Shown: in pieces, positions 1 to 15,937 of the stretch
How the letters are laid out: each line of letters starts with the position of its first letter
Position numbering within the stretch: the first letter of the stretch is position 1
From: a virus
Taxonomy: Duplodnaviria; Heunggongvirae; Uroviricota; Caudoviricetes
Direction: 5' to 3' (one strand)
DNA length: 25,836 nucleotides
IMG/VR virus record: IMGVR_UViG_2526164601_000026
The notes under the pieces: model-generated
What the model was told of the DNA's origin: nothing
Seen by the model: only the letters and a program-made list of their open reading frames with translations
Databases searched by the model: none
Made by a program: the position numbers and the translations under genes

Positions 1-43
1 AAAAATTTTTATGTTTTCAGTATAAAATTTCTGTTCCCTTATC

Positions 44-535
44 CTACATATTATCCTGACAGTGGGGATACATAGAAGCATAGGAAAAAAGTACTAGATC
101 TAGTTCAAACGTTTCTTTCATGCCATCCATGGTTATGGAGGTACTCAGTAACCCACGATGGGCCAGAGATTCTACTCCAGTCATTGGGTTATCAAGCTTA
201 TTCATTTGCCCCCATGTCATAACTGAACTGCCATGTTTTACAAAGTGCATCACCACTTCTTTTTCACTGTCAGTTAGGGAGTGATAAAGCGCTGATAGTC
301 GATTTTTTGCGGCTTCCTCCTCTTTGCGGGTAATAATTCGCTGATAGATTCCTCCGGTTATAACTTTTACCACTGGAAAAGTTATAACAAAGGAAAATAA
401 CGTTATCACATTATCGGAATATATTAGATAACAGGTCAGTCCAACTATCCCGGATAGACATATGGCAATATTGATGCTAAAGTCTTTCTCCGAATAAACG
501 CGGCCAAATAGTTTTTCGAGAACATCTTCTATCAA
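44..535 (-). CDS. Small inner-membrane protein, possibly SieB-family superinfection exclusion protein
   Basis: 163-aa ORF with two N-terminal hydrophobic helices (INIAICLSGIVGLTCYLIY; ITLFSFVITFPVVKVITGGIY) followed by a charged soluble domain. Size, topology and position at the early-left end of a lambdoid prophage fit SieB-like proteins. Family assignment is from memory, not a search. Confidence 0.45.
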   Translation of the reverse strand: MIEDVLEKLFGRVYSEKDFSINIAICLSGIVGLTCYLIYSDNVITLFSFVITFPVVKVITGGIYQRIITRKEEEAAKNRLSALYHSLTDSEKEVVMHFVKHGSSVMTWGQMNKLDNPMTGVESLAHRGLLSTSITMDGMKETFELDLVLFSYASMYPHCQDNM

Positions 536-841
536 AGTTATACTCCTTGTTGGGTACTAAAGACGCTTGAATATACAGCTAACATTACTTTACTAGGGAT
601 AATAATTGATTTTCTTACCGAACTATGGGTACTGAACGCTTTGGCATCTTTTATTACAGGTGGTTACTGCTGATGGCATAAGAGTATTATCAGTATTGGT
701 AGAAAAATAAAACAGAAATTTTCTGTAATACCCCATTTATCAAGACGCCTTTATATTTCTAACGTCTGTATCTGGCTAAGGGGCAGTCAGGTTTAGAACT
801 GTGCAATAGTTGCGTTTGTTCGAATCCGGCGCGGCCACTGT

Positions 842-3133
842 TCAGTACATTCCGTCCCAGTCCGGACGGTTGGTTTTTTTATGATGAAACCCGTTTACAG
901 GACGCCCTGTCGGGTGGTTATTGTCCTGTGGAAGCGTTAACAGGTTTATACCTGCTCTTTCTGCTCTCACTGATATCTGATTTTCCTCTTTTGTTTCAGG
1001 TAGTTCTGGTCTGTTCAGCGTGATATAGCGAATTCGTCGATCTTCCCGTGTGGTCGTTTTTAGCGTATTCACCGCTGTTTCCCACAAGGCACTTTCACGT
1101 GCGTTGATATCCGTGTCGTACTCTTCCAGCATTGCCATAGCCGCCTGACGTCCTGCAATGCGTTGCTGGAATGTATCCACGATCGTGTGCGGCTCTGTGC
1201 GAATTTTTCGTCTTTTTCTGGAGGGTTTTGCAGTCAGGACGCCAATGATGGCACTGACATTTTCCGGTGACGGTATTCGACGTTGAGTAGTACGGGGAAC
1301 AAGACGGCGGAGACGGTCCAGGCGTGGCGCATCCACGCTGATATACCTGTTTATAACCACGGGATCGCTGCTGCAGCTTTTCTCATCGTCAGGGATGAAG
1401 AATGATGCTGATGGTACGGTTTCTCCCCGGAAAATAGAAAAGAACTCGCCAGGATGAAGTTCAATCAACTCCTGAACATTTATCTTGCTTTCCATTAGGA
1501 TGCTGATTTGTGGGCTGTCAATCCATGATTCACCAAATATGCCGTCCTGACGCTGTAGGTTGTTCATTCTCGCCCTGGCTTCTTCACCGGCGGCGCTTTT
1601 CAGCGTTCTGGCTGTACTACCCTCGCTGACAATCCTGCCGGCAAATTTTGTCCCCGTGTTCTGCATCAGTGTTGCAGTATTCGTGGCTGTTGTCTGTCCT
1701 TCTATACGTTCCTGGTCCTGTGCCATCAAAATCAGAGCAAAATCCAGTGAACGCACCTGAGTGGCTTCCACAGCAATACGGTCCGTATAGTATGCCCCCA
1801 CTTCATCAAGGAAACACAGATAAGGGAAACGCCCCTTATATTTTTTGACTTCCAGTGCATCGGAATCAGTTCCTTCGAGGCGGTAGCCCAAATCACGGGC
1901 GAGAATCATACTTTTCTGGGTGATAAACATTCGTCCAAGAGCAGACGTTGTATGCGCTGATGTATCCAGAGCGGGGATCATTACCATCAGAATCCTGTCG
2001 CTGTGAATGCTGTCACGGATATCGATATCACCGGAATCTTCAGCAAAAATATCCCCGAATGCTTCCGTGAATGTGCTGAAAGTTTCAGAAAACTGCCCGG
2101 AGAGATAAGCATGTTGTTTTCTGGGTTCTTCCGTCCAGGCTGATGGTGTCCTGACCAGCGACAGGTCGAAACCGGGAACGTCCTGAAGGTAGTTACGTAA
2201 CGGTGCGATAGCTTCTTCCGGCCACTGATCATCGAGGCCACGACAGTAAAGTTTGGCCATCCCTTCGAGAGTCATATGTTCACGGAGCATCTGCAGCGAC
2301 ATTGTTTTGCCTTCGCGCACACACCAGAATTTAGTACCAAATACCAGTGCCTTATTCATGGCAATGGCCCGGGACTGCCACTCGCCCCCCTGGACGTTCT
2401 GGGGCAGCATTGACTGCATTGTCTCCGCTGTGAATGCCTCAGTGCTGTAACAGAAGGGATTCCAGGTATTTGACTGAGGACGCGTTTTTTCACCACTCAG
2501 AATGATTTCACTGCGGGATTTTCCTCCGTTCATGAAGTTAATGACTTCCACATCGTCTTCACGTCCAAAGCGTCTGGCCAGATACCAGATCGTTCTTGCC
2601 GTATCATTCTGTGCCTTGCCATCGACAAGGGTGAATCCTCTTGCCCAGCAAAGTGGGTTAATCGCCCAGGCAAAGATGGTTTCCGTTTTACCGCCACCGG
2701 TGGTGGCGAAAAACATTATATGGCGGGTCAGATCGTCCATACTCAGCCATAACTCCCTGCCAATATCCCTGACGCGTTGATAACCAACATAGAATATGCC
2801 GCTGGCCGGTGATTCCAGAATGACCTCATACTGGAACAGGGTTGGCCAGAAGCTGAAAAGACTTCTTTTAATCATTCTGTCCTGTGACGGGTCAGCACAT
2901 TCCAGCGTCATGGGCATACGAAGAGGGCAGCGCCATCGCTGCAGACTAAATACCAGCATCGTTATCAGTGTGAACAACAGACATGCCGGTAATGCAAGTG
3001 GCCAGATAAAACTGGCCACAAGACTTGCCACCAGGCAAAAGCCATAGATATTGAGACTCTGGAGTGCATTCCAGACAGGATTTCCCCAGGCTGTACGGTG
3101 TAAAAGCTCGGGGTTAACGCGATGTTCACTCAT
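842..3133 (-). CDS. Type IV coupling protein-like P-loop ATPase (VirD4/TraD/DotL-like; resembles TrbC of IncI1 plasmids)
   Basis: 763-aa ORF. Two N-terminal TM helices (FCLVASLVASFIWPLALPACLLFTLITMLVFSL), Walker A FFATTGGGKTE, Walker B-like LCFLDEVG. Start overlaps the stop of the upstream gene by 8 nt, indicating translational coupling. Third gene of a three-gene operon. Confidence 0.7.
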   Translation of the reverse strand: MSEHRVNPELLHRTAWGNPVWNALQSLNIYGFCLVASLVASFIWPLALPACLLFTLITMLVFSLQRWRCPLRMPMTLECADPSQDRMIKRSLFSFWPTLFQYEVILESPASGIFYVGYQRVRDIGRELWLSMDDLTRHIMFFATTGGGKTETIFAWAINPLCWARGFTLVDGKAQNDTARTIWYLARRFGREDDVEVINFMNGGKSRSEIILSGEKTRPQSNTWNPFCYSTEAFTAETMQSMLPQNVQGGEWQSRAIAMNKALVFGTKFWCVREGKTMSLQMLREHMTLEGMAKLYCRGLDDQWPEEAIAPLRNYLQDVPGFDLSLVRTPSAWTEEPRKQHAYLSGQFSETFSTFTEAFGDIFAEDSGDIDIRDSIHSDRILMVMIPALDTSAHTTSALGRMFITQKSMILARDLGYRLEGTDSDALEVKKYKGRFPYLCFLDEVGAYYTDRIAVEATQVRSLDFALILMAQDQERIEGQTTATNTATLMQNTGTKFAGRIVSEGSTARTLKSAAGEEARARMNNLQRQDGIFGESWIDSPQISILMESKINVQELIELHPGEFFSIFRGETVPSASFFIPDDEKSCSSDPVVINRYISVDAPRLDRLRRLVPRTTQRRIPSPENVSAIIGVLTAKPSRKRRKIRTEPHTIVDTFQQRIAGRQAAMAMLEEYDTDINARESALWETAVNTLKTTTREDRRIRYITLNRPELPETKEENQISVRAERAGINLLTLPQDNNHPTGRPVNGFHHKKTNRPDWDGMY

Positions 3134-4196
3134 GGCCAGACTCGCTGTCGGTGGTTTTCAGGAATAAATTAAGCGTGCCAGTTTCCTGCAGAATTCCAGT
3201 AGGCAGATGCCAGCCCGTGTCGGACAGCACCCATGGGGTACCGGCAAATCCGAACTTACGGAAGGCGACATTGTTAACATCAATCGCAGCTCTGGCTGCT
3301 TTCAGGCATGTTTCATCTGCAGGCGTTGTTTCTTCTGATGGCGTCATCATTCCGTTATCTGCGGAATACAGTCGGTGCCAGCTGGCAGCACGTTTCTGAG
3401 CATCTTTTTCACACAGCAGTGGTGCCACACGGTCGGTGGATTCCTCTCCACCAATAACTGAAACCGGGTAGATAACGACATTGAAGTCGCTGGCCAGGCG
3501 TTTTAAGGCCGGCTCCAGAAGTCTGCAGTTAGGACAGGCAGGATCGAGAAATGCGAACAGGGTTCGTTCATGACCGGATGACAGGTTGATGGTAAACATG
3601 CCCCGATCGGCGTTCCGCTTCAGAACAGTAGCCAGATTATGTCGCGCAGCTGCGGCTTCCGGATTTTTGCTTGTGATTGTTTTCTCCGGTACCTGGACGT
3701 CTTTTTTCGGGGGAACCGGGAGTTGAATGCCTTCATTTAATGGCACAGTGTGATTCAGGTGAGGGGGAAGCAGTCGTGGCTCACCTGCTGTCTGTACTGC
3801 TTCAGGCGTTGTATCATCCCAGAATACACGATCAACATAGCGGAACAGAGAGAAGCCAATCGTTGCCATTACGAACAGCACAACGCTGGCGATTATGCCA
3901 CGGAACAAAGGTGTTCTGCTGAAGCGGCGTTCCATCAGATATTCAAGGCGCAGGCAGGAATCAATAGCTGTAAGTATCTGGTCAGCGTTATGCTCCTGTT
4001 TATCAATCAGGACGGTTTCTCTGTTACGGGTGCCCATGGCGTCAAAGGCTATATGAATCAGTTGATTATTTCGTGTTACCAGCCCTGACAGGGCATCCCG
4101 TGGAAGGACGGCAATAATTTCTGTCCTGCCATCCGGCCAGATTGCCTGCACGGAAATATGTTTTGCAATGCGTGTTGCAAAGTACTCGATTGTCAT
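3126..4196 (-). CDS. Membrane-anchored thioredoxin-fold protein with CxxC motif (DsbA/DsbC-like; TrbB-like)
   Basis: 356-aa ORF. Single internal TM helix (LFRGIIASVVLFVMATIGFSLF) and C-terminal FLDPACPNC thiol-disulfide motif. A GGAG RBS lies in the 18-nt spacer after the upstream gene. Confidence 0.65.
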   Translation of the reverse strand: MTIEYFATRIAKHISVQAIWPDGRTEIIAVLPRDALSGLVTRNNQLIHIAFDAMGTRNRETVLIDKQEHNADQILTAIDSCLRLEYLMERRFSRTPLFRGIIASVVLFVMATIGFSLFRYVDRVFWDDTTPEAVQTAGEPRLLPPHLNHTVPLNEGIQLPVPPKKDVQVPEKTITSKNPEAAAARHNLATVLKRNADRGMFTINLSSGHERTLFAFLDPACPNCRLLEPALKRLASDFNVVIYPVSVIGGEESTDRVAPLLCEKDAQKRAASWHRLYSADNGMMTPSEETTPADETCLKAARAAIDVNNVAFRKFGFAGTPWVLSDTGWHLPTGILQETGTLNLFLKTTDSESGHE

Positions 4197-4214
4197 TTTC
4201 AGTTCTCCGGATAA

Positions 4215-5423
4215 TCAGAATTCGTTGTCTGTAGCAGGTGTGCGGGGCAGGATGTCGTCGGTGAGGGACCAGTTGGTCAGGATGCGGCGTTTCCGGTCGC
4301 GATCTGGTTGTGGTTCATCCCAGATAAGACCGAGACTGAGCATATCCCGCCGTAAGCCTTCCACCGCTTCATCAACACAGGGTTCAGGGCAGGGAAGACC
4401 AAAACGCATGGCTTCGGCCTCTGCACGTGCAACGGCCACCACGCCAGCGCCTTCAATAAATCCTTTCGTGGTATTGGCGCGGTGTAATGCATAAAACAGC
4501 GTCCTGTCCACGCCTTTCAGCCAAATCCAGTTGGGTGGCGTAAGCCGCAGGTCATGTGCATACAGCCAGACCAGCCCACTGCGGACGTAGCGATGTTGTT
4601 TCAGCCATTGCTGTGCTCCGTTGCTTTTAATCACTCTCTGGAAAGCTGATTTGGCCAGTGAATAAACAGGGGTACAGAATTTCCCACTGTCCCGTTTGCT
4701 TTTAATTCTGCATGAGAGGTTCAGTGTATCCATGAGCTTTAATGCTGCCTTACGATCATCCAGGAAATACTGAAGACCAAATATGGCAAAGAGCGCTTTT
4801 TCATGTGGTGCCATGTCTTTCCAGGACGTTAAAGGTTTACCCAACTGGGCCATGAAACATCGTCTTGCAGCTGCAACATCGAGCTGCATATTGGTGATGA
4901 GAGTATGCTGCTCGACAAATGCTTCCGGGGTGAGAGCAACCCGCCGTTCAGGTCGTTTGCCACCATGAAAGAGTTTTTCCGGATCACCATCTGCCAGTAC
5001 AGGGGCGATAGCAGGGGACAACGAAGCAAAGATGTGTGGCAGTCGGGTAATATCTACTGGTCTGCGGGTGAAACGACTTTGTCCCGGATGTTGATACCAC
5101 TCCCACAAACACCAGAGTGTCACAGGTAAGAGGTACATCCACAGAATACCTATGGTCTGCTCCATGACGTTAACCCACTGGCTATAGCTTATGTTGGCGG
5201 CGTTGTTACCGGTCATGGCAAGCAGGTTGTATCGTGGTGCTGCATAGTTATGAAATGGTCCCCAGTCAACCAGTCCCCATAAGGTATGAAGAATCAGGCA
5301 GCTGGCGTAAACCACTTCCGGCAAGAATAACCATATAACGAATAGCAGCAGGATAAGAAGGACACCAACAGCGCCCCATATCTGCATAGGATCTTCTGCG
5401 ACAGGCTGTCGATTGTAAGACAT
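4215..5423 (-). CDS. Inner-membrane protein (DotM/IcmP-like; TrbA-like), first gene of the coupling-module operon
   Basis: 402-aa ORF. N-terminal TM helices (GAVGVLLILLLFVIWLFLPEVVYASCLILHTLWGLV; IGILWMYLLPVTLWCLW) then a soluble domain. GGAG RBS 8 nt upstream of ATG. Family assignment is by architecture and gene order only. Confidence 0.5.
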   Translation of the reverse strand: MSYNRQPVAEDPMQIWGAVGVLLILLLFVIWLFLPEVVYASCLILHTLWGLVDWGPFHNYAAPRYNLLAMTGNNAANISYSQWVNVMEQTIGILWMYLLPVTLWCLWEWYQHPGQSRFTRRPVDITRLPHIFASLSPAIAPVLADGDPEKLFHGGKRPERRVALTPEAFVEQHTLITNMQLDVAAARRCFMAQLGKPLTSWKDMAPHEKALFAIFGLQYFLDDRKAALKLMDTLNLSCRIKSKRDSGKFCTPVYSLAKSAFQRVIKSNGAQQWLKQHRYVRSGLVWLYAHDLRLTPPNWIWLKGVDRTLFYALHRANTTKGFIEGAGVVAVARAEAEAMRFGLPCPEPCVDEAVEGLRRDMLSLGLIWDEPQPDRDRKRRILTNWSLTDDILPRTPATDNEF

Positions 5424-5583
5424 GACAAAGTCTCCATTTCTGGAATTTAAATCAAACGGAAAGGTTAAAAATTTATTTGCAGGCGATAAGAGCTAACCAG
5501 AGGAATTAGCCGTGCGATAAAAGGATTGTTGCAGATACGAAAGTCGTTAGAATAGCTGCGGGCGCTTGAGGCTGTATGCCGAA

Positions 5584-7366
5584 AGCGTTTTGTGGACGGT
5601 ATACAGCAGAAAGCCCCTGGAGATTTTTTTATCAATCAACCAAGGGCTCTACTGTAATGCCTAGACAACATTATAGTAGCCCGATAACCGCCGGAAGGCA
5701 ATGGAGGGGCTATGATGTGTTAACACCAAGCTGTAATGTCCCCTTTCGTAACCATTCTAAAATGTCCCCACGACAATTCTCTGGGGGAGTTTTTCTATGA
5801 TCAAAGAGACTGTTACGATGAGTCATAAGGAACTCCACCGACTTCAGATTATTCAGGAGTCAATTAATCGACATATTACTCAGGAACAAGCTGCGGCACG
5901 CATTGGCATTTCTATTCGGCAGGTTAAACGTCTGGTGCAACGGTATAGAAATGAAGGGCCTTCTGGTCTGGTTTCCCCCCGACGTGGAAAGCGTCCTAAT
6001 AATTCCTTTCTACTGATTCAGAGCAACAGTAATTTCACTCCTCAAAGGCCGTTACGCTGATTTTGGACCTACGTTTGCGTGCGAAAAATTGCGTGAGATA
6101 CACGGTTTATCTTTATCCGTTGAAACTCTCAGAAAGTGGATGATAGAAGAGGGGTTATGGCGTGAACGCCGTCGTAAAATTGCCCGTATATATCAACGCC
6201 GCATGCGACGACCATCTTACGGTGAACTGATCCAGATTGATGGCTCACCTCATGACTGGTTTGAAAATCGAGGCCCCAGATGTACACTGATCGTTTTCAT
6301 TGATGATGCCACCAGTGCGTTGATGGCGTTGCGTTTTGTGCCTGCTGAAACAACCCGGGCTTACATGGAAACCCTCCGGGGTTACCTTAATGATCATGGC
6401 GTACCGCTCGCTCTCTACTCTGATAGACACAGTATATTCAGGGTAAATAACCCAGAGCGGGAAGGTGAGCTGACCCAGTTCACTCGTGCGATAAAGACAC
6501 TGGGCATCGAGCCAATCCATGCCAACAGCCCGCAGGCAAAAGGGCGGTAGAGCGCGCCAATCAGACACTACAGGACAGGCTGGTCAAAGAAATGCGGCTT
6601 CAGAATATCAGTGATATTGAAACAGCAAATGCATGGTTGCCGACCTTTATTGAAGCCTATAACAACCGGTTCGCTACGTCGCCTCGTACTACTGATAATG
6701 CTCATCTTGATGTGCACCATTCTGAAGAGGAACTGGGTTATATCTTCAGCCTACAGGCGAAGCGCGTTCTGTCTAAAAATCTCACTTTCCAGTACAAAAG
6801 CAGTGCGTTTCAGGTACGCAGTGAGGGCCGGGGATATCGACTTAGGCATTCGGTTGTTACTGTATGCGAGAACTTTGACGGTGAAATTAACGTTCTGTAT
6901 GACGGGAAAGCGCTGGGCTGGGAAAAGTATGTTGATGGCCCGGAGCCTATACCACTGGATGATGAAAAGAGTGTCCATGAACGAGTGGATAATGCCCGTA
7001 TTGATTTACGCTCAAAATACTATGTTAAACCTAAAGCTGACCATCCCTGGCTTACGCGCCGAACGCAAAGTCATCAGCAAGTTAAGCCCCCGAAGTTACC
7101 TAAAAAGAAGCCTGATCCCGATAAAAAAGATTGAAACCAAGATCGATTCGGTTGAGTGCATATCCATTCATAGGGTAGATTCTTAAGTCGCGTTTCTGGT
7201 GTTCATTTTCGGGTGGTTTGTTACTTGTTTTACCGGGGATATGCCAGAAACGCGCTGAGTCAGTCTGGGCGGTGCGCGTAATGAGGCGTTATGGCAAATA
7301 GCCTATGCTAATGTCCGCTAAGAGCAAGAAGCGGAAGTTGGCAGTTTGTGGACTGTCCCCACAAAA
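5584..7366 (+). mobile_element. Degenerate insertion sequence (approximate boundaries)
   Basis: Encloses the frameshifted transposase. Imperfect inverted similarity between the left end (gttttgtggacgg, ~5584) and the reverse complement of the right end (ttttgtggggacag, ~7345-7366). Boundaries are uncertain and no target-site duplication was identified. Confidence 0.3.
5797..7134 (+). pseudogene. DDE (rve-type) transposase with N-terminal HTH, split into three frames by two frameshifts
   Basis: ORFs 5797-6060, 6089-6550 and 6592-7134 are consecutive pieces of one ~445-aa transposase (HTH ...IGISIRQVKRLVQRY...; integrase core ...LIQIDGS...IVFIDDATS...). Frame breaks near 6035-6060 (T run) and 6545-6552 (gggcggtag, G run). 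Family guess ISNCY/IS481-like, not verified. Confidence 0.65.
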
Positions 7367-7532
7367 GTGACTACAGAAATAGTTGCAATTCATAATTGAT
7401 CATGGGTTGTCAGTTAAACTCGTGGCGATTTAAATAGACTAATTGGGAGTGCGTCCATTACTTATATCTTGTAATGTTAACTATCAGAAATGATACAAAG
7501 ATAATATGTCTTTAAAGAAAAGGCTGATGGCG

Positions 7533-7555
7533 AAAAGTGGCCCGATGAGGGCCAC
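7533..7555 (-). terminator. Putative rho-independent terminator downstream of flxA
   Basis: Hairpin gtggccc-gatga-gggccac, followed on the minus strand by TTTTCGCC. Confidence 0.35.
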
Positions 7556-7565
7556 AATACGGCTG

Positions 7566-7901
7566 TCACTTAGACGTAAATATCAATGGTGCCAGCGGTA
7601 TTTGTATCGTCTTTTTCTCTTCTTTTTTATCAGGCTGAACTGTCGCGTCTTCATTCTTTTTCTCTGCCTGCTGCCTTAACAACTGCTCCAGTTGAGCCCA
7701 GAGGCTTTCAATTTGCTTCTGTACCAATGCAGCCATTTCTTTTTTCTGCTGTGTCGTCATCCCCTCTTCCGATGAGATTTTCCCAAGCTTTTCAGTCAGC
7801 ACCTGAATTTGTCTTGTGATTTTGGCTATTTCTGATGTTCCTTCCGGGGCGGAGTTGTTTGAAATAACGGTTGAGGTATTTCCCTGAATTGTGACAGACA
7901 T
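7566..7901 (-). CDS. flxA: FlxA-like protein (prophage gene of the flagellar regulon)
   Basis: 111-aa ORF (MSVTIQGNTSTVISNNSAPEGTSEIAKITRQ...) matching my recollection of Qin-prophage FlxA. AGGAG RBS 7 nt upstream of ATG. Sigma-28 promoter immediately upstream. Confidence 0.65.
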   Translation of the reverse strand: MSVTIQGNTSTVISNNSAPEGTSEIAKITRQIQVLTEKLGKISSEEGMTTQQKKEMAALVQKQIESLWAQLEQLLRQQAEKKNEDATVQPDKKEEKKTIQIPLAPLIFTSK

Positions 7902-7924
7902 AGATTTCTCCTTTTAAAAAAGCA

Positions 7925-7951
7925 CTATCGGCATGCACAAAAAAATCTTTA
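7925..7951 (-). promoter_or_regulatory. Sigma-28 (FliA)-type promoter for flxA
   Basis: Minus strand reads TAAAGATT-N11-GCCGATAG against consensus TAAAGTTT-N11-GCCGATAA. The -10 element ends about 24 nt upstream of the flxA ATG. Confidence 0.55.
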
Positions 7952-8397
7952 ATCGTATTTCTTGTGTCATTAATTGTTTGATGTTCAGATTGTTTTCCTC
8001 GCGGGCTGGCGCGCCTCAGAAAGTAAAGCTTGTTGACAGGGGTAAACGTTCGGCAATAATTTTCTGCCGCATGCGGGTGTTGCATAAAACGTGCTACGTT
8101 CCTTTATCGACAGGTCAGGTCACCGCTCACCCGCCGACGAGAAAGCAACACTGACATGCTAAAGCAAAAAATAGATGAATAAGTTGAGTTGTGCATATGT
8201 AGCCTGACCGTCACAAAGTATATGGTGTCTGTACCAGTAAGATGATGGCCGGACTCTTTAAAAACGAGCTGACCTGCACAATACAGGATTGGACTTAGCA
8301 ATGGCTGCTCCTGGCACAAAGCGGACAGTGATCACCGTTCTTACGACTACTTTCTGACTTCCTTCGTGACTTGCCCTAAGCATGTTGTAGTGCGATA

Positions 8398-8424
8398 CTT
8401 GTAATGACATTTGTAATTACAAGA
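8398..8424 (+). promoter_or_regulatory. relBE operator/promoter region
   Basis: gtaatgacatttgtaattacaagagg, with the palindrome ttgtaattacaa, directly upstream of the relB ATG; matches the known relO architecture. Confidence 0.45.
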
Positions 8425-8434
8425 GGTGTAAGAC

Positions 8435-8673
8435 ATGGGTAGCATTAACCTGCGTATTGACGATGAACTTAAAGCGCGTTCTTACGCCGCGCTTGAAAAA
8501 TGGGTGTAACTCCTTCTGAAGCGCTTCGTCTCATGCTCGAGTATATCGCTGACAATGAACGCTTGCCGTTCAAACAGACACTCCTGAGTGATGAAGATGC
8601 TGAACTTGTGGAGATAGTGAAAGAACGGCTTCGTAATCCTAAGCCAGTACGTGTGACGCTGGATGAACTCTGA
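8435..8673 (+). pseudogene. relB: RelB antitoxin, frameshifted as given (A5 run at 8496-8500)
   Basis: Translation MGSINLRIDDELKARSYAALEKWV then stop. The rest of RelB (GVTPSEALRLMLEYIADNERLPFKQTLLSDEDAELVEIVKERLRNPKPVRVTLDEL) continues in the +1 frame. One A appears to be missing relative to the K-12 gene as I recall it. Confidence 0.75.
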
Positions 8674-8961
8674 TGGCGTATTTTCTGGATTTTGACGAGC
8701 GGGCACTAAAGGAATGGCGAAAAGCTGGGCTCGACGGTACGTGAACAGTTGAAAAAGAAGCTGGTTGAAGTACTTGAGTCACCCCGGATTGAAGCAAACA
8801 AGCTCCGTGGTATGCCTGATTGTTACAAGATTAAGCTCCGGTCTTCAGGCTATCGCCTTGTATACCAGGTTATAGACGAGAAAGTTGTCGTTTTCGTGAT
8901 TTCTGTTGGGAAAAGAGAACGCTCGGAAGTATATAGCGAGGCGGTCAAACGCATTCTCTGA
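8673..8961 (+). pseudogene. relE: RelE mRNA-interferase toxin, frameshifted as given (A4 run at 8720-8723)
   Basis: ATG overlaps the relB stop (ATGA). MAYFLDFDERALKEWRK, then the frame is lost; the remainder (...KKKLVEVLESPRIEANKLRGMPDCYKIKLRSSGYRLVYQVIDEKVVVFVISVGKRERSEVYSEAVKRIL) is in another frame (ORF 8749-8961). Confidence 0.75.
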
Positions 8962-9032
8962 ACCAAAGCATGACATCTCTGTTTCGCACCGAAGGTGACA
9001 CTTCTGCTTTGCGTTGACAGGAGAAGCAGGCT

Positions 9033-9188
9033 ATGAAGCAGCAAAAGGCGATGTTAATCGCCCTGATCGTCATCTGTTTAACCGTCATAGTGACGGCACT
9101 GGTAACGAGGAAAGACCTCTGCGAGGTACGAATCCGAACCGGCCAGACGGAGGTCGCTGTCTTCACAGCTTACGAACCTGAGGAGTAA
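9033..9188 (+). CDS. hokD: Hok-family type I toxin (HokD/RelF-like)
   Basis: 51-aa ORF MKQQKAMLIALIVICLTVIVTALVTRKDLCEVRIRTGQTEVAVFTAYEPEE, with a single TM helix. Sits downstream of relBE as in the Qin prophage. Confidence 0.8.
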   Translation: MKQQKAMLIALIVICLTVIVTALVTRKDLCEVRIRTGQTEVAVFTAYEPEE

Positions 9189-9255
9189 GAGACCAGGCGG
9201 GGGAGAATCCCTCGCCACCTCTGATGTGTCAGGCATCCTCAACGCACCCGCACTT

Positions 9256-9282
9256 AACCCGCTTCGGCGGGTTTTGTTTTTT
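9256..9282 (+). terminator. Rho-independent terminator (3' end of hok transcript)
   Basis: aacccgc-ttcg-gcgggtt hairpin followed by TTGTTTTTT. Confidence 0.5.
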
Positions 9283-9354
9283 CCTAGCATTCTGGTTTAC
9301 AATTCGCACGCCAGCCTGAACAACTGGCACCTGCTGCGCCAGCAGAGACAACCG

Positions 9355-9633
9355 ATGGCGCACGATACCAAATTACACAATTCTGATGATTCTGCCGTCT
9401 TTGCCAGCAGGCACGGGCGGCGTTCCCGCACTTTCAAATCTGACTGGTTCCAGCATCCCCCATGCACTGAAGAACAGGCCGAGTGGCTAATTCAGTGCTA
9501 CCGCAGACACGGATACGAGATTAAGAAAGCCCTCAGCCTCGATTATCGTCACTGGATAATCTCCGTCAGGCTTCCTTACTCCGAGCGCCCACCGCGTCCG
9601 TCCCGCACATTCCAGCAACGCATCTGGAGGTAA
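9355..9633 (+). CDS. Rem-like small prophage protein
   Basis: In-frame ATG downstream of the hok terminator; MAHDTKLHNSDDSAVFASRHGRR.... The track ORF 9226-9633 would read through the terminator, so the shorter start is preferred. Position matches rem in Qin; function unknown. Confidence 0.4.
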   Translation: MAHDTKLHNSDDSAVFASRHGRRSRTFKSDWFQHPPCTEEQAEWLIQCYRRHGYEIKKALSLDYRHWIISVRLPYSERPPRPSRTFQQRIWR

Positions 9634-9634
9634 C

Positions 9635-10684
9635 GTGCGGGTATTACTTCGACCTGTTCTGGTACCGGAACTCGGGCTGGTGATCGTTAAGCCGGGCCGT
9701 GAATCCATGCCGGTATTCCACAATACCCGGGTACTGGTGGAGCCGGAACCGAAAAGCATGCGTAATCTGCCGTCCGGGGTTGTTCCTGCCGTTCACCAGC
9801 CGCTAGTGGAAGACAAAACATTGCTGCCGTTTTTCAGTAACGCACGGGTGATTCGTGCTGCTGGTGGTGCTGGTGCATTGTCTGACTGGCTGTTGCGCCA
9901 TATTAAATCCTGCCAGTGGCCACACGGCGATTATCATCACAGCGAAACCGTCATTCACCGTTATGGTACCGGCGCAATGGTGTTGTGCTGGCACTGCGAC
10001 AACCAGCTGCGTGACCAGACATCCGAATCACTCGAGCAACTTGCTCATCAAAACCTGTCAGCATGGATGATTGACGTCATCGGTCACGCAATAAGCGGTA
10101 CGCAGGAGCGTGAATTATCTCTGGCTGAATTATCCTGGTGGGCGGTCTGCAATCAGGTGGCGGACGCGCTTCCGGAGGCAGTATTACGTCGTTCTCTGGG
10201 GTTACGTGCGGAAAAAATCCGCCCCTTGTACCGCGAAAGCGACATCGTACCGGGAGAGCAGACCGCCATCAGCATACTGAAACAGCGCACAAAAAATCTT
10301 GCGCCGCTGCCTCACGCCCACCAGCAACAGAACCCACCACAGGAAAAGACGGTGGTCAGCATTGCCGTTGATCCTGAGCCTCCGGAATCTTTCATGAAAC
10401 GACCTAAACGTCGCCGCTGGGTTAACGAGAAATACACACGCTGGGTGAAGACACAGCCGTGTGCGTGTTGTGGTAAGCCAGCCGACGATCCCCATCACCT
10501 GATTGGTCATGGTCAGGGCGGAATGGGGACAAAATCTCACGATATTTTCACGCTACCGCTGTGTCGGGAGCATCACAACGAGCTTCATGCGGATCCGCTG
10601 GCGTTCGAAGAAAAGCATGGTTCTCAGGTTGATTTAATTTTTCGTTTTCTTGATCACGCCTTTGCAACTGGCGTGCTTGGGTAA
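9635..10684 (+). CDS. DUF968/YdfU-like protein with HNH-like Cys/His motif
   Basis: 349-aa ORF with C-terminal CACCGKPADDPHHLIGHG...CREHHNELH motif. Position between rem and rusA/Q as in Qin-type prophages. Confidence 0.6.
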   Translation: MRVLLRPVLVPELGLVIVKPGRESMPVFHNTRVLVEPEPKSMRNLPSGVVPAVHQPLVEDKTLLPFFSNARVIRAAGGAGALSDWLLRHIKSCQWPHGDYHHSETVIHRYGTGAMVLCWHCDNQLRDQTSESLEQLAHQNLSAWMIDVIGHAISGTQERELSLAELSWWAVCNQVADALPEAVLRRSLGLRAEKIRPLYRESDIVPGEQTAISILKQRTKNLAPLPHAHQQQNPPQEKTVVSIAVDPEPPESFMKRPKRRRWVNEKYTRWVKTQPCACCGKPADDPHHLIGHGQGGMGTKSHDIFTLPLCREHHNELHADPLAFEEKHGSQVDLIFRFLDHAFATGVLG

Positions 10685-10696
10685 AAGAGGTGACTG

Positions 10697-11053
10697 ATGC
10701 TCATAGATTTGGTTTTACCTTACCCGCCGACGGTGAACACTTACTGGCGACGCCGTGGCAGCACATATTTTATCTCGGAGGAGGGAAAGCGTTATCGCCG
10801 GGCTGTGGCGCTTATTGTTCGCCAGCAGCGGCTGAAATTAAGCCTGTCCGGAAGGCTGGCGATAAAGGTGATTGCAGAGCCACCGGATAAGCGTCGTCGC
10901 GACCTGGACAACATTCTGAAAGCACCGCTGGATGCGCTGACGCATGCGGGAGTGTTAATGGACGATGAGCAGTTTGATGAAATCAATATCGTTCGTGGTC
11001 AGCCAGTATCTGGTGGACGTCTGGGGGTGAAGATTTACCCCATAATGCATTAA
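10697..11053 (+). CDS. rusA: RusA-family Holliday junction resolvase
   Basis: 118-aa ORF containing the RusA-like core RRRDLDNILKAPLDALTHAGVLMDDEQ. AAGAGG RBS upstream. Confidence 0.75.
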   Translation: MLIDLVLPYPPTVNTYWRRRGSTYFISEEGKRYRRAVALIVRQQRLKLSLSGRLAIKVIAEPPDKRRRDLDNILKAPLDALTHAGVLMDDEQFDEINIVRGQPVSGGRLGVKIYPIMH

Positions 11054-11067
11054 GAGCAGGTCAAAAA

Positions 11068-11889
11068 ATGAAACTGGAAGATTTACCGAAATACTACTCC
11101 CCAAAATCCCCTGGCCTGACCGATGCATCGGCCTCAACGTCAAAAGATGCGCTGAGTATCACTGATGTGATGGCCGCGCAGGGCATGACACAGAATCGGG
11201 CTGAGATGGGTTTTTCTGCGTTCCTGGGGAAAATGGGCATCAGTATGAATGACAGGGCGCGGGCAACAGAATTACTGGCAGATTATGCACTCAGTCGGTG
11301 CGATCGTGTGGCGGCGTTGAGAAAACTTCCGGCAGAAATAAAACCGGTAGTGATGCGCATTATGGCTTCGTACGCTTTTGAGGATTATGCCCGCAGCGCA
11401 GCGAGTAAAAAGCAGTGCCCTTGTTGCTATGGGGAAAAATTTATTGAAAGCATAGTTTTTACAAACAAGGTCCAGTATCCGGATGGTAAGCCGCCGGTAT
11501 GGGCAAAGTGTACGAAAGGTGTGTATCCGTCTTACTGGGAAGAATGGAAAAAAGTCAGGGAGGTGGTAAAAGTTGCCTGTCCGGAGTGTGGCGGAAAGGG
11601 TGAGGTTTCCACCGCCTGTAAGGATTGCCGTGGGCGTGGTGTCGCCATTCATCGTGAAGAGTCGGTAAAACGTGGTATGCCTGTTATCAGAGACTGCCAG
11701 CGTTGTGGTGGTCGTGGCTATGAAAGACTACCATCAACGGAGGCATTTAATGCTATATGCGAGGTGACAAACCAGATAACACGCGCGTCATGGGAAAAAA
11801 CAGTTAAGAAATTTTATGATGCGCTGGTGACCCGGTTTGATATTGAAGAAGCATGGGCTGAGCGGCAGTTAAAAAAGGTAACTAGGTAA
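11068..11889 (+). CDS. Late-gene antiterminator Q-like protein
   Basis: 273-aa ORF with Cys-rich zinc-binding motifs (CPECGGKGEVSTACKDCRGRG; CQRCGGRG). Located immediately upstream of the PR'/tR'-like region and the tRNAs. Confidence 0.6.
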   Translation: MKLEDLPKYYSPKSPGLTDASASTSKDALSITDVMAAQGMTQNRAEMGFSAFLGKMGISMNDRARATELLADYALSRCDRVAALRKLPAEIKPVVMRIMASYAFEDYARSAASKKQCPCCYGEKFIESIVFTNKVQYPDGKPPVWAKCTKGVYPSYWEEWKKVREVVKVACPECGGKGEVSTACKDCRGRGVAIHREESVKRGMPVIRDCQRCGGRGYERLPSTEAFNAICEVTNQITRASWEKTVKKFYDALVTRFDIEEAWAERQLKKVTR

Positions 11890-11894
11890 CAAGG

Positions 11895-11922
11895 TTGATT
11901 TTTCCGGAATCTGTGGTAAATT
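11895..11922 (+). promoter_or_regulatory. Candidate late promoter PR' (sigma-70 type)
   Basis: TTGATT-16 nt-TAAATT just downstream of Q stop and about 50 nt upstream of a terminator. Confidence 0.35.
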
Positions 11923-11969
11923 CGTCATAACGATGGGCGTTTTATGCCTGACGTTAGAAGAGTTTCTAC

Positions 11970-11995
11970 AACCCGCCGCTGAGCGGGTTTTTTAT
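11970..11995 (+). terminator. tR'-like rho-independent terminator
   Basis: aacccgc-cgctga-gcgggtt hairpin followed by TTTTTTATT. Confidence 0.5.
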
Positions 11996-12032
11996 TGCGA
12001 AATTAATTACGGACCGTTATTATTCTGCTCCC

Positions 12033-12108
12033 GGCCCTTTAGCTCAGTGGTGAGAGCGAGCGACTCATAATCGCCAGGTCGCTGGTTCAAATCCAGCAAG
12101 GGCCACCA
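12033..12108 (+). tRNA. ileZ: tRNA with CAU anticodon, ileX/ileZ-like (tRNA-Ile2)
   Basis: 76-nt cloverleaf: acceptor GGCCCTT/AAGGGCC, D-arm GCTCAGTGGTGAGAGC, anticodon loop CTCATAA, T-arm GCTGGTTCAAATCCAGC, encoded CCA. Closer to ileX than to elongator Met. Confidence 0.85.
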
Positions 12109-12209
12109 TCACAAACCGCCATTAGCTTATCAGGAAGAGCAGACGACACGATAACAGGGTTGTTGGTGCGGGGGGCGGGTCCCCGATGGCGATCCATTAT
12201 CGGTATTCA

Positions 12210-12286
12210 GCGTTGTTAGCTCAGCCGGACAGAGCAATTGCCTTCTAAGCAATCGGTCACTGGTTCGAATCCAGTACAGCGCGCCA
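12210..12286 (+). tRNA. argO: tRNA-Arg (UCU anticodon)
   Basis: 77-nt cloverleaf: acceptor GCGTTGT/ACAGCGC, anticodon stem-loop ATTGC-CTTCTAA-GCAAT, T-arm ACTGGTTCGAATCCAGT, encoded CCA. Confidence 0.85.
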
Positions 12287-12396
12287 TATTCATTCTTCCA
12301 GATTCCTTCCGGCAGAGCCTTATACTGAAATATACCTGGCTCAGGATATTGTTGAAAATATTATATGTTTGTCAAAAATAAAAGTTCTGTTAAGTA

Positions 12397-12750
12397 TTGA
12401 TTGAATATTTGTTATACGGTCTAATGGTTTTTTCAGCATTAAATATTTATCATTCATATGGTGTGGGTAGAGTGAATATTGATGAGGCGTCGGGGTGTTT
12501 CATCCTTAGGCAGCGTATTGATATAGTCAATGCAGCACGAGCAAAGGCCTTCAGCCGTTTGACAGTTTTGTTCTGTACTCCTGATCGTCTTTCGGGAAGA
12601 GACGTTATTATTCTGAATAGTGATGCTATACAGAGGGTTTGCGATGAGTTCATGGTTGCTAATTCAGAATTATTTGCTCTTGTTCAGGAGTACAACAGAA
12701 TAGCCAGGACCTGTGGTATGGATGAACTTCGGATTACTCATCTGGGGTAG
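12397..12750 (+). CDS. Hypothetical protein (cargo gene downstream of phage tRNAs)
   Basis: 117-aa ORF starting at TTG; the first ATG is at 12424. No clear RBS and no family recognised. AT-rich context. Confidence 0.3.
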   Translation: MIEYLLYGLMVFSALNIYHSYGVGRVNIDEASGCFILRQRIDIVNAARAKAFSRLTVLFCTPDRLSGRDVIILNSDAIQRVCDEFMVANSELFALVQEYNRIARTCGMDELRITHLG

Positions 12751-13141
12751 ATACATATCTGGATTATCACCTGTTACGGTAAAAAGTGATTGCTTACTGT
12801 TTTTGTGAATGGCATTGCAGCAGCCGGATAATGTCAGTGCTGGCTGACGGTGTGCTGGTGGCGGGTGTGGTGGTTGTTGCTTTCCCGTTGCTGAAAAAGA
12901 AAACGCCAGACTGTTAGCCGGGTATCAGTTAGCGGGAGAAATTTTTAAATACTTCACAATTCAGGCGGTTGACTGTTGTCTGGTTTGCGGGGAGTTTGTT
13001 AAAAGAAACTGGCATGGTGAATCCCCCTGTGCGGAGGGGCAATCAGCGAGTAGGTATATGGGATAATCGCGGATTCAGGTGCTGGTACTGAATTCACCGG
13101 GAGGCACCCGGCACCATGCAATGGCACATAGCGCCACTCTC

Positions 13142-13178
13142 CAGCCCCTCTCCGGAGGGGCTGTTTATATTGATTTTG
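13142..13178 (+). terminator. Rho-independent terminator-like hairpin
   Basis: cagcccctc-tccg-gaggggctg GC-rich stem followed by TTTATATTGATTTTG. Confidence 0.4.
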
Positions 13179-13197
13179 TCAGATGTGAGTAAACTCC

Positions 13198-13533
13198 TTA
13201 TGGATTTTGTTGTTTTAGCCCATAAGGACATATTTGCAGAGTGCAACGGTTATTAAAGCATTCATTCAATACGTTATCTGTATTTGTAGGGCATTCCTGG
13301 CTGTTTTTGATTAAATTCCAGAATGTTTTATTGAATGGTACTATGTTGTAAATGGTTACAGGTAGCACTTTGTTATTGAGCATGATACCTGTGTGAGTCA
13401 GTGTAAATATACTTTCAGGAGGTAAGAAAGCATCCGATTGATACCAGATTATTAATTTTATTTTACTCCATATGACTGAAAAAGATATTCCGCATGATGG
13501 CTGGATAACTGTATCAATCACAATCCACTTCAT
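13198..13533 (-). CDS. Hypothetical Cys-containing protein (AT-rich cargo gene)
   Basis: 111-aa ORF with AAGGA RBS 7 nt upstream of ATG. Strongly AT-rich; no recognisable family. Confidence 0.45.
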
Positions 13534-13777
13534 TTACTTTCCTTGTTTATGCCTTGCTGGTGATGTTCTGAAAAGTATAAATGATATTTTTGAATTAAAC
13601 CATAGAGCAGAATTATTTTTCTGATGTTGTTTATTGTTTATTTAAATACAGGGTGGTTTATATCTCGTCTTGTAGTTTATCCATGCATATCTGCTTGATA
13701 ATCAGGTTTTTATTTAAGGTATGGTTTTGTGTTTTTTCTGTATTACATGTCAGGTATTTTAAAGAATTATTTTTCAG

Positions 13778-15685
13778 ATGGTGGAAAGAACCATGGCATT
13801 TAAACACTATGATGTTGTCAGGGCGGCGTCGCCATCAGATCTTGCGGAAAAGCTGACACATAAACTGAAAGAGGGCTGGCAGCCGTTTGGTAGTCCGGTG
13901 GCCATAACCCCTTATACTCTGATGCAGGCGATTACAGCAGAAGGTGATGTGGTGGTCAGTGGTGCAACTGAGCCGGATTGGTACTACGTCATCGTACTGG
14001 CCGGGCAGTCCAATGCCATGGCTTACGGTGAAGGGCTTCCGCTGCCGGATTCATACGATGCTCCGGATCCGCGCATTAAACAGCTGGCGCGCCGCAGTAC
14101 AGTGACGCCGGGTGGGGCTGCCTGCAGATATAACGATATTATTCCGGCCGACCACTGCCTGCATGATGTGCAGGATATGAGTACGCTGAATCATCCGAAG
14201 GCAGACCTGAGCAAAGGGCAGTACGGCTGTGTCGGCCAGGGCTTACATATTGCCAAACGTCTGCTGCCGTATATCCCCAAAAATGCCGGGATTCTTCTTG
14301 TTCCCTGCTCCCGTGGTGGTTCGGCATTCACCCAGGGCGCGGAGGGGACATTCAGTGCGGACACGGGGGCCAGCCAGGATTCGGCGCGCTGGGGTGTGGG
14401 TAAACCGTTATATCAGGACCTGATTGCGCGCACTAAAGCTGCATTACAGAAGAACCCGAAAAATGTGTTGCTGGCGGTGTGCTGGATGCAGGGAGAGTTT
14501 GACATGAGCGCCGCCACCTACGCACAGCAACCTGCGCTGTTTACAGCCATGCTGAAGCAGTTTCGTGCTGACCTCACTGTGTTTAACGCGCAGTGTCATG
14601 GTGGCAGTGCTGTAAATGTGCCGTGGATTTGTGGTGACACGACGTATTACTGGAAAAATACATACGCTACCCAGTACGACACCGTGTACGGCGGGTATAA
14701 AAACAGGGAGAGTGAGGGCGTTTATTTTGTGCCCTTCATGACAGACGGTAACGGCGTCAATACCGCCACTAACGCGCCGGCAGAAGATCCGGATATTCCG
14801 GCATCAGGATATTACGGTGCGGCATCGAGAACGAATGGAAACCAGGTATCATCAAACCGCCCGACACATTTCAGTTCATGGGCGCGCAGGAGCATTATTC
14901 CGGATCGTCTGGCAACCGCTATTCTGAACGCAGCCGGGCGCACCTCCGCCTTCATCAGTGGTAAGGCACCGGAAATCAAACCCTCGCCCGGCGGCAACAC
15001 GCCATCGGGTCCGTCTGCAGATACGTCCGTTCGCACAATCTCCCTGCTGCCGGCAGCCGGAGAGGCTGCTGCGCAGGGCTGGAGCATTAAGGATGGCGGA
15101 ATTCAGTTGTCAGATGGTGTATTTAAGATCACCAAGCAGAGCAATAAAACCTGGTCCCTGACGCATCCGGTGGATGACGCAATTACCCTGCTGACACAGG
15201 GCGGCAGACTGACCTGTAAGTTCCGCCTGTCAGGCGCACTGACCAACAATCAGTTCGGGCTGGGGATTTATCTGTATACGGATGCTCCCGTTCCTGATGG
15301 TGTGGCGATGACGGGTACCGGTAATCCGTTCCTGATGTCGTACTTCACTCAGACCACTGACGGCAGAGTGAATCTGATGCATCACAGGAAAGCCGGAAAC
15401 ACGAAGCTGGGGGAGTTCGGCGATTACGGTAACGACTGGCAGACGCTGGAGCTGGTGTTCACCGCCGGCAGTGCCACGGTTACTCCGAAACTGAATGGAG
15501 TGGCTGGCCCGGCATTCCAGGTTATAAAAGACAGTCTGACACTGGGACTGAATGCGCTGACGCTGACGGATGTTACAAAAAATGCAGCGTATGGCGTTGA
15601 GATAGAAAGTCTGGTGCTGGAGATAAATGCACCGGCAGCATATAAAAAAGAGCCAGCGACTGACCTGAAAGAAGACGCTGGCTAA
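13778..15685 (+). CDS. nanS-p: NanS-p-like prophage sialate O-acetylesterase (N-terminal DUF1737-like plus SASA esterase domain)
   Basis: 635-aa ORF. N-terminus MAFKHYDVVRAASPSDLAEKLTHKLKEGWQPFGSPVA; esterase motif region VIVLAGQSNAMAY. Occupies the position downstream of Q/tRNAs typical of Stx-phage nanS-p. Alternative start at 13793. Confidence 0.7.
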   Translation: MVERTMAFKHYDVVRAASPSDLAEKLTHKLKEGWQPFGSPVAITPYTLMQAITAEGDVVVSGATEPDWYYVIVLAGQSNAMAYGEGLPLPDSYDAPDPRIKQLARRSTVTPGGAACRYNDIIPADHCLHDVQDMSTLNHPKADLSKGQYGCVGQGLHIAKRLLPYIPKNAGILLVPCSRGGSAFTQGAEGTFSADTGASQDSARWGVGKPLYQDLIARTKAALQKNPKNVLLAVCWMQGEFDMSAATYAQQPALFTAMLKQFRADLTVFNAQCHGGSAVNVPWICGDTTYYWKNTYATQYDTVYGGYKNRESEGVYFVPFMTDGNGVNTATNAPAEDPDIPASGYYGAASRTNGNQVSSNRPTHFSSWARRSIIPDRLATAILNAAGRTSAFISGKAPEIKPSPGGNTPSGPSADTSVRTISLLPAAGEAAAQGWSIKDGGIQLSDGVFKITKQSNKTWSLTHPVDDAITLLTQGGRLTCKFRLSGALTNNQFGLGIYLYTDAPVPDGVAMTGTGNPFLMSYFTQTTDGRVNLMHHRKAGNTKLGEFGDYGNDWQTLELVFTAGSATVTPKLNGVAGPAFQVIKDSLTLGLNALTLTDVTKNAAYGVEIESLVLEINAPAAYKKEPATDLKEDAG

Positions 15686-15892: not shown

Positions 15893-15937
15893 TCTTTACT
15901 TTCATTTTCTGTCGGCGGTGACGGAGACATACATCAG

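Follow-up and report, generated by a model that had tools for sequence, protein, structure and literature searches.

Plasmid and prophage DNA joined at a probable hok-targeting, relBE-carrying transposon of the IS1202 family

The IMG/VR virus record IMGVR_UViG_2526164601_000026 is a stretch of 25,836 nucleotides assigned to the Caudoviricetes, which we analysed over its whole length and refer to as the window. We are highly confident that it is a composite of three parts, namely a segment of an IncI1 plasmid, a transposon resembling ISEsa1 of the IS1202 family, and the late half of a lambdoid prophage (Table 1). At the transposon one replicon gives way to the other, plasmid to prophage, and the prophage is without its early arm on this side; this is why no immunity or replication genes are present. 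As intact relatives of the prophage carry their early arm upstream of the toxin gene hokD, the absence of early genes marks a breakpoint and is not a property of the phage backbone.

When positions 1–12000 of the window were searched by megablast against 5,426 complete Escherichia coli genomes with a query coverage threshold of 80%, no record reached this threshold. The matches were of two kinds, IncI1 plasmids and chromosomal Qin-type prophages. Positions 822–5717 are 99.7% identical to hundreds of ordinary IncI1 plasmids which lack the transposon, positions 1–9023 are 99.8% identical to plasmid pDEC9B-1 and to one other plasmid, and the chromosomal Qin-type prophages match from 5690/5718 to 11999 with 97–98% identity. 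Positions 9019–25836 are 99.7% identical to the tRNA-Ser prophage of B1_2 and 99.3% identical to its counterpart in DEC9B, the match to both prophages starting at 9019–9020. Annotated relatives account for all bases of 1–11889, and no immunity or replication genes are found in them there.

An earlier note on this DNA had remarked that no repressor, Cro-like or replication gene precedes the late antiterminator gene Q, and this could be confirmed. In a tblastn search with 20 early-region proteins of two intact relatives (loci L002 and L003 of our collection) no cI/Cro-like, replication, integrase or excisionase gene was found from position 1 to Q. The best E-value in the window was 0.009, and this sole match is a trivial overlap of 14 residues at the transposon junction. 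Neither the repressor nor Cro of the two relatives matched the window, the replication genes (O/P-like, DUF977) had no match beyond the junction overlap, and no int/xis homologue was detected. The gene content given for this interval holds in part. The insertion sequence (IS) remnant, flxA, relB, relE, hokD, the DUF968 gene ydfU, rusA and Q are present in the order described, and the Qin-type succession flxA, relBE-hokD, ydfU and Q occurs as one uninterrupted block on more than 1,100 complete E. coli chromosomes. The gene rem is not present, as it has no tblastn match in the window and as the 135-codon open reading frame (ORF) at 9226–9633, which encloses a phage ORF of 92 residues, has no Pfam match and hence no Rem domain. 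The supposed coupling module is trbC-trbB-trbA of an IncI1 plasmid, as seen from the TrbC_conju equivalog match and the plasmid identity. The interval does not end with Q at 7565 either, since Q occupies 11068–11889 and 7566 is the end of flxA. Finally, the late region had been described as lambda-like and intact save for frameshifts, and indeed a lambda-type cosN, a Nu1-type terS, the portal gene, the S49 protease gene and the decoration protein D gene are present, while terL has three one-base indels.

By its genes the left arm is assigned to the nikB-proximal transfer region of an IncI1 conjugative plasmid, and the trbA-trbB-trbC operon in the window is of the R64/ColIb type. TrbC scores 1043 bits on the equivalog model NF041447 (cut-off 800), TrbB has weak thioredoxin/TraF matches, and the exact TrbA protein recurs in 45,546 blocks of a contig collection. 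In pDEC9B-1 the relaxase gene nikB is followed by a hypothetical ORF just downstream, by trbC, trbB and trbA and by the pnd locus, and nikB ends 100 bp left of the position that matches base 1 of the window. One of the relative plasmids that bear the transposon has been typed as IncI-gamma/K1, MOBP and MPF_I. The ORF at 44–535, which the earlier note took for the early-left phage gene sieB, gives an E-value of 0.016 and 15.3 bits with SieB PF14163, below the cut-off of 26 bits, and has no NCBIfam or PHROG match. Its protein lies between nikB and trbC in pDEC9B-1 and in 24 of 24 contigs read (six distinct neighbourhoods among them shown), all of which are IncI1 plasmids.

These data bear on the reading proposed in the earlier note, namely that the window is one contiguous, defective Qin-like prophage with a decayed early region and with sieB as the mark of its early-left operon, which would be non-inducible or would depend on a repressor just outside. 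The Qin-type order of flxA, relBE, hokD, ydfU and Q and the sub-threshold SieB match are in accord with it, as is the lack of replication genes in the K-12-like Qin remnants L012, L016 and L019. Nevertheless, the left 5.7 kb are IncI1 transfer DNA and not phage, so that no single lambdoid map extends from sieB to Q: positions 1–5717 are 99.7–99.8% identical to IncI1 plasmids, trbC lies above its equivalog cut-off, the SieB-like ORF is seen only beside nikB and trbC on plasmid contigs, and neither it nor trbC nor trbA has a PHROG match. Moreover, even degraded Qin remnants keep a DicA-like repressor left of the block. We therefore consider this reading very improbable. The earlier note had named as its own refuting case a functional switch just outside the window. 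This is unlikely as well, since by synteny with pDEC9B-1 nikB would end 100 bp past the left edge, which favours a plasmid junction over a Qin-like defective prophage. The observation of the earlier note was thus largely right and its interpretation largely wrong.

The left arm ends within a toxin–antitoxin locus. The leader of the pnd locus, a member of the hok/sok family, matches the Rfam model sok RF01794 with 133.7 bits over the full model (1–157), and the match ends exactly at the junction at 5717. In ordinary IncI1 plasmids pndA follows directly beyond this leader. On the other side of the transposon Rfam recognised no sok leader upstream of hokD in the window. The pnd-type leader at 5560–5717 and the hokD ORF hence come from different loci of origin and are 3.3 kb apart.

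The block between them has discrete ends. The element has the termini TGT...ACA (TGTTAAC...GTTGACA), and its inverted repeats agree at 19 of 26 positions. When the reverse complement of the left 26 bases is compared with the block, the best match is the extreme right end (19/26), with 15/26 for the runner-up. The three pieces of the transposase pseudogene reach 54, 223 and 81 bits with ISNCY_2, for which the cut-off of the full model is 250, and an intact transposase of 446 residues, annotated as ISEsa1-family, is present in loci L008, L010, L022, L023 and L051. Complete copies elsewhere are bounded by matching direct repeats of 15–16 bp at five different hok sites, and every such copy lies at the start codon (Shine-Dalgarno/ATG) of a hok-family gene. 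The duplicated targets are GGAGAAGCAGGCTAT at hokD of chromosomal prophages, TGGAGGGGCTATGATG at pndA of IncI1 plasmids and GGAGAAGAAGGCCAT(G) at hok of Enterobacter IncF plasmids. Filled and empty versions were seen for both the pnd site and the hokD site. The copy in the window shows no target duplication, its flanks being mismatched, pnd-type at the left and hokD-type at the right.

The element varies in size (2575, 3302, 4487 and 6093 bp), yet in each variant relBE stands beside the right end, and the right inverted repeat is the same. Thus relBE is the constant cargo of an element of 2.6–6.1 kb. In the window the pair is disrupted relative to pDEC9B-1: one base of an A-run is lost from relB at 8495, and relE gains one base at 8720. 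The C-terminal part of RelE still matches Pfam ParE_toxin. We also sampled 16 species-representative genomes that contain the exact 26-base left end. The start region of a hok-family gene forms the left flank in 12 of the 15 readable cases, and in 6 of these 12 flanks a full Rfam sok match ends at most one base from the element. The occupied hok sites comprise hokD, pndA and IncF hok loci of Enterobacter, Kluyvera, Klebsiella, Citrobacter and Shigella. Among our loci the element is found in the window, L001, L003, L004, L007–L010, L021–L023, L027–L042 and L051.

Two other explanations of the block were tried and rejected. An ISEsa1 of 1.6 kb moving adjacent DNA by way of a surrogate end would call for an internal repeat resembling the right end; the best candidate agrees at 15/26, and the idea is also contradicted by the size variants, all of which end in relBE and the same right inverted repeat. 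It follows from both observations that the whole block is the transposing unit. The 28 bases at 5690–5717 which the window has in common with chromosomes could have been a long target duplication, but in the alignment they are only homology between the pnd and hokD leaders. From its ends, targets and transposase, the flxA-ydfV-relBE block of Qin is best classified as a bounded transporter IS of the IS1202 family. In the K-12-like remnants L012, L016 and L019 a deletion that reaches to the DicA-like repressor gene has removed the transposon's left end along with the part of its gene that encodes the N-terminus of the transposase, and this deletion may be the reason why the relBE block was not seen as mobile in such remnants. 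Our literature searches found no description of a hok-targeting element that carries relBE. We consider it highly probable that the element targets the Shine-Dalgarno/ATG region of hok-family genes, mostly in one orientation, on plasmids and in prophages across the Enterobacteriaceae, and that relBE is its constant cargo, so that relBE (relBEF) of K-12 would be transposon cargo.

Several genes of the window are frameshifted (relB, relE, ydfV, the transposase gene and terL), and the distribution of these lesions is informative. Compared with the closest references, the window has small indels in only three patches, at 5747–9019 (11 indels), 15642–15792 (2 small indels and a 150-bp deletion) and 20320–21613 (3 indels in terL). 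Most of them are single bases, many within short base runs, and the other roughly 20 kb, including the 5.7 kb of plasmid DNA, have none. Twelve indel calls, the twelfth of which (9019) is the junction itself, stand against 4 substitutions in otherwise near-identical DNA. The transposon and the 20–22 kb segment are near-identical repeats in DEC9B. Because indels exceed substitutions and cluster in segments that are repeats in DEC9B, we rejected real pseudogenisation; the gene-disrupting indels are probably sequencing or polishing errors and not decay. Such a distribution points to an assembly of long reads, polished with short ones, whose repeats escaped correction.

To judge the join itself we compared the flank types of 31 fetched loci with junction or empty-site sequence. 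A pnd-type left flank together with a hokD-type right flank is found only in the window and in one further locus, L005, and from these two flanks the join is a hybrid of two replicons. L005 is the IMG/VR contig IMGVR_UViG_2534681836_000019 of 39,148 bp, in which the transposon stands between IncI1 trbA with the pnd leader on one side and hokD with a prophage of the Qin type on the other, so that a catalogued virus genome here includes about 5 kb from a conjugative plasmid. Exact-protein look-ups with the 180-residue transposase fragment, the SieB-like ORF and TrbA led to ordinary Qin-type prophages or ordinary IncI1 plasmids alone, with no additional hybrid among them, and the 37-mer across the plasmid/transposon junction had no match in metagenomes. 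The contig of origin was not recovered either: a 58-mer specific to the window had no match in viral, metagenome and genome collections, nor did exact-protein look-ups with two products specific to the window give any.

We give even chances to the join in the window being a real molecule, formed as a cointegrate or by recombination. Its right flank has no mismatch in 482 bp to the prophage type with an empty hokD site, and hokD is empty for this flank type in B1_2, in DEC9B and in 10 of 10 sampled neighbourhoods. Compared with the occupied Qin-type flank of DEC9B, 9 of 275 positions differ and there is an indel. No complete genome joins the transposon to this phage flank, the best match having 97.4% identity in two pieces. 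A misjoin would therefore need two hops of the assembler between repeats, the second right at the edge of the element, whereas one transposition into the preferred target would give the junction of the window directly. In addition, errors confined to repeats suggest bridging by long reads, which normally resolves a repeat of 3.3 kb; such reads would span the transposon and would favour a real join.

The competing explanation is an assembly chimera: the assembler would have passed from an ordinary IncI1 plasmid whose pnd locus holds the transposon into one of several separate, normal chromosomal prophages, by way of the 3.3 kb repeat and a short shared segment of hokD, and the missing immunity module would be an artefact. 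We regard this as a serious alternative, to which we would give somewhat less than even chances, and the following points count for it and against a real join. A search with a 7.3 kb query, for which a coverage above 80% is attainable only by the hybrid, found it in 0 of the 5,426 complete E. coli genomes and in 0 of 72,556 plasmid records (PLSDB). In DEC9B the plasmid copy, a chromosomal copy and the prophage with the empty site are all present and all separate. The transposon is a near-exact repeat of 3.3 kb between replicons, the classic setting for a misjoin, and the plasmid and chromosomal copies of DEC9B cannot be told apart by mismatches per 500 bp. Departures from the reference sequences are concentrated within the repeat and close to its left boundary, with an untidy cluster at 5747–5796, 30–80 bp inside the left junction. 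The phage flank of L005, in turn, is an ordinary occupied Qin-type site of 102 complete genomes, so that a one-hop misassembly of the plasmid with this normal locus would explain L005.

A third possibility is that, after fusion and deletion, an IncI1 plasmid carries the phage segment from hokD to the head and perhaps tail genes, and could transfer it by conjugation. Late regions with 93–95% identity are present on several large records filed as plasmids, and the left arm contains a functional-looking transfer region. On the contrary, PLSDB has no plasmid in which this phage DNA is linked to IncI1 trbA, and the window ends within the head genes with no return to plasmid backbone visible. Such a capture is improbable in our view.

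If the join is real, two routes to it can be envisaged. A plasmid-borne copy of the transposon could transpose replicatively into the empty hokD site of a prophage of the tRNA-Ser type and yield a cointegrate, or RecA could recombine a plasmid copy with a prophage copy. Sequence variants within the transposon gave no means of placing a crossover, as the copies on plasmid and chromosome resemble each other too closely. TnsB of Tn7 acting without TnsA gives cointegrates, and the TnsB-like transposase of the element, having no TnsA partner, might by analogy transpose replicatively and produce cointegrates as well. By either route the whole plasmid of roughly 100–160 kb would come to lie between the replication genes of the prophage and hokD/Q. 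Transcription from the early promoters would no longer reach Q and the late genes, the distance from cos to cos would exceed the capacity of the head, and no viable particles would be expected. The full scenario, an active IS1202-family, hok-targeting transporter IS with relBE whose replicative transposition left an IncI1–prophage cointegrate at hokD, is in our opinion rather unlikely, its cointegrate part being speculative.

Table 1. Features of the window (positions in nucleotides) and target duplications of the transposon
Feature	Position	Strand	Basis or remark
IncI1 plasmid DNA (SieB-like ORF, trbC, trbB, trbA, pnd/sok leader)	1–5717
Membrane-protein ORF, 163 residues, weakly SieB-like	44–535	−	Only Pfam match SieB PF14163
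trbC, IncI1 conjugal transfer gene	842–3133	−	NCBIfam TrbC_conju NF041447
trbB, IncI1 thioredoxin-like transfer protein	3126–4196	−	RefSeq annotation of identical pDEC9B-1 gene
trbA, IncI1 DotM-like transfer protein	4215–5423	−	Pfam DotM_C, E=1.6e-49
pnd (hok/sok-family) leader, severed from toxin ORF	5560–5717	+	Rfam sok RF01794
ISEsa1-like (IS1202-family) transposon with flxA, ydfV, relBE	5718–9019	+	3.3 kb
Left inverted repeat of transposon (IRL)	5718–5743
Transposase pseudogene, three frames	5797–7134		NCBIfam ISNCY_2 match per piece
flxA	7566–7901	−
ydfV, frameshifted	8104–8410	−
relB	8435–8673	+	Frameshift at 8495
relE	8673–8961	+	Frameshift at 8720
Right inverted repeat of transposon (IRR)	8994–9019
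Lambdoid prophage half, hokD and Q to head genes	9020–25836
hokD toxin ORF without own leader	9033–9188	+	Pfam HOK_GEF, E=1.2e-23
Phage ORF, 92 residues, not Rem	9355–9633	+	phrog_1212, E=1.6e-35
ydfU-like DUF968 gene	9635–10684	+	Pfam DUF968, E=6.4e-76
rusA, Holliday-junction resolvase	10697–11053	+	Pfam RusA, E=1.8e-17
Q, late antiterminator	11068–11889	+	Pfam Antiterm PF03589, E=6.3e-55
Two phage tRNA genes, CAT anticodon and Arg-TCT	12033–12286	+	ARAGORN, Rfam, RefSeq annotation of L002
Lambda-type cosN 12-mer	19462–19473	+	One exact match to GGGCGGCGACCT; 0.08 expected by chance
Terminase genes	19716–22094	+	Pfam Phage_Nu1, GpA_ATPase, split GpA_nuclease
Portal, S49 prohead protease, head decoration protein D, all intact	22281–25752	+	Pfam Phage_portal_2 E=4e-101, Peptidase_S49, HDPD
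Target duplication GGAGAAGCAGGCTAT			hokD, chromosomal prophages
Target duplication TGGAGGGGCTATGATG			pndA, IncI1 plasmids
Target duplication GGAGAAGAAGGCCAT(G)			hok, Enterobacter IncF plasmids

The right arm contains Q, a lysis cassette, cos, a terminase of the Nu1/gpA type, and a lambda-type portal gene with head genes, and from these genes it can be placed in a common family of lambdoid E. coli prophages. The small terminase gene terS (Nu1-type) is intact. The reading frame of the large terminase gene terL (gpA-type) is broken at three places relative to B1_2 (20320, 21600 and 21613), each time by an indel of one base, and at least two of these indels lie in A/T runs. The tRNA gene at 12033–12108 is called Met (CAT) by ARAGORN; RefSeq annotates it in the B1_2 and DEC9B prophages as tRNA-Ile, the Ile2 type modified with lysidine. 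A CAT tRNA paired with tRNA-Arg(TCT) downstream of Q is typical of rare-codon tRNAs borne by phages. Between these tRNA genes and an iraM-like gene, positions 12983–13172 give a full-length Rfam match (132 bits) to the small RNA STnc100. The esterase gene at 13778–15685 (DUF1737/SASA/DUF6645, nanS-p-like) has 17 substitutions within the 54 bp 14258–14311 relative to B1_2 and DEC9B, and the 150 bp deletion relative to both lies at 15705, just downstream of this gene. The patch of substitutions may be due either to recombination between paralogous prophage copies or to a mixed consensus.

Prophages with an unoccupied hokD site carry variable, defence-like cargo just upstream of hokD (L002 13028–14454, L006 13014–14454; L052–L061). 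Examples are a SMODS nucleotidyltransferase with SLATT, a PP2C phosphatase with a protein kinase, an M78 peptidase with a helix-turn-helix (HTH) protein, and a gene of the Beta_protein family. This suggests a hot spot for cargo between the replication genes and hokD.

What follows from the composite depends in part on the join. The missing immunity module is a replicon boundary and no new kind of prophage; as a finding on defective prophages it is ordinary. If the join is real, an IncI1 conjugative plasmid would have fused into a prophage through a shared transposon and disabled it, and phage late genes and cos would stand beside a conjugative transfer system, which would bear on the exchange of cargo between plasmids and phages and on Hfr-like mobilisation. 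If it is an artefact, virus-prediction pipelines and window scans can present plasmid–phage chimeras as odd phages, and one such contig is already in IMG/VR. Whatever the status of the join, the transposon accounts for the leaderless hokD that is co-transcribed with relBE, makes relBE and flxA mobile cargo, and gives a target duplication and a target specificity to an IS group listed with neither. The hok-targeting relBE transposon is the most interesting by-product of this analysis and the part worth following up.

The closest known system for the transposon is the IS1202 family. Where its transposase gene is intact, the element shares with the family a protein of about 446 residues that has an HTH at the N-terminus and a DDE core; ends in TGT/ACA and imperfect inverted repeats of 24–27 bp are further common features (PMC10132070; preprint 10.1101/2022.12.17.520857). 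As in our element, duplications of 15–17 bp are made by the ISTde1 subgroup, and some members of the family carry passenger genes and some are target-specific. Target specificity has been reported only for the subgroup with 5 bp duplications, which uses dif/Xer sites (preprint 10.1101/2022.12.17.520857). TnsB of Tn7 has served as the template for a model of the family's transposase, and none of the other Tn7 transposition proteins is encoded by those members from Acinetobacter that were studied (PMC10132070). ISEsa1 is listed with 1609 bp and no detectable target duplication (PMC10132070). The element described here differs from this ISfinder entry in its length of 2.6–6.1 kb, in always carrying relBE, in its target duplications, and in its insertion at hok start codons.

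For the left arm the nearest relatives are IncI1 plasmids with the transposon in pnd, namely pDEC9B-1 (NZ_CP074761.1), NZ_CP074821.1, NZ_CP039299.1 and the Salmonella plasmid pSA20064858.1 (NZ_CP030003.1). They share with the window the nikB-proximal ORF, trbCBA, the pnd leader and the transposon to its right end, with 99.8% identity over 1–9023. Beyond the right end of the element they part from the window: the plasmids continue with the 16 bp duplication, pndA and then the IncI1 backbone, the window with hokD and the late genes of the phage.

The right arm corresponds to the tRNA-Ser lambdoid prophages of B1_2 (NZ_CP074764.1) and DEC9B (NZ_CP074760.1), which have the same hokD, 92-residue ORF, ydfU, rusA, Q, tRNAs, esterase, lysis genes, cos, terminase, portal, S49 protease and D. 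Unlike in the window, their hokD site is unoccupied and their terL is intact, and upstream of hokD they carry int, a DUF4224 gene, exo, ydfD, dicB, a repressor gene of the LexA family, cro, ydaT, two replication genes and a SMODS/SLATT pair. An equivalent early set (repressor, cro, ydaT and replication genes) lies upstream of the same right-hand block in full-length prophages at the Qin site. Qin of K-12 and the full-length Qin-site prophages (GB089, strain 400660) have the transposase remnant (intK/ydfW), flxA, ydfV, relB, relE, hokD, ydfU and Q in the same order as the window, and the same transposon at the same nucleotide of hokD, with 96–98% identity. They differ from the window in a switch of the DicA/DicC type at the left, accompanied in the full-length ones by replication genes, in the presence of rem, and in other lysis and head modules.

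For the join as a whole, the best known counterpart is the integration of the F plasmid that leads to high frequency of recombination (Hfr), which proceeds via a shared IS2, IS3 or gamma-delta. In both, a mobile element common to two replicons, one of them a conjugative plasmid, is the site of fusion, which comes about by recombination or as a cointegrate. The join in the window, which is putative, differs from Hfr formation in that the partner site lies inside a prophage and that the shared element is a transporter IS of the IS1202 family.

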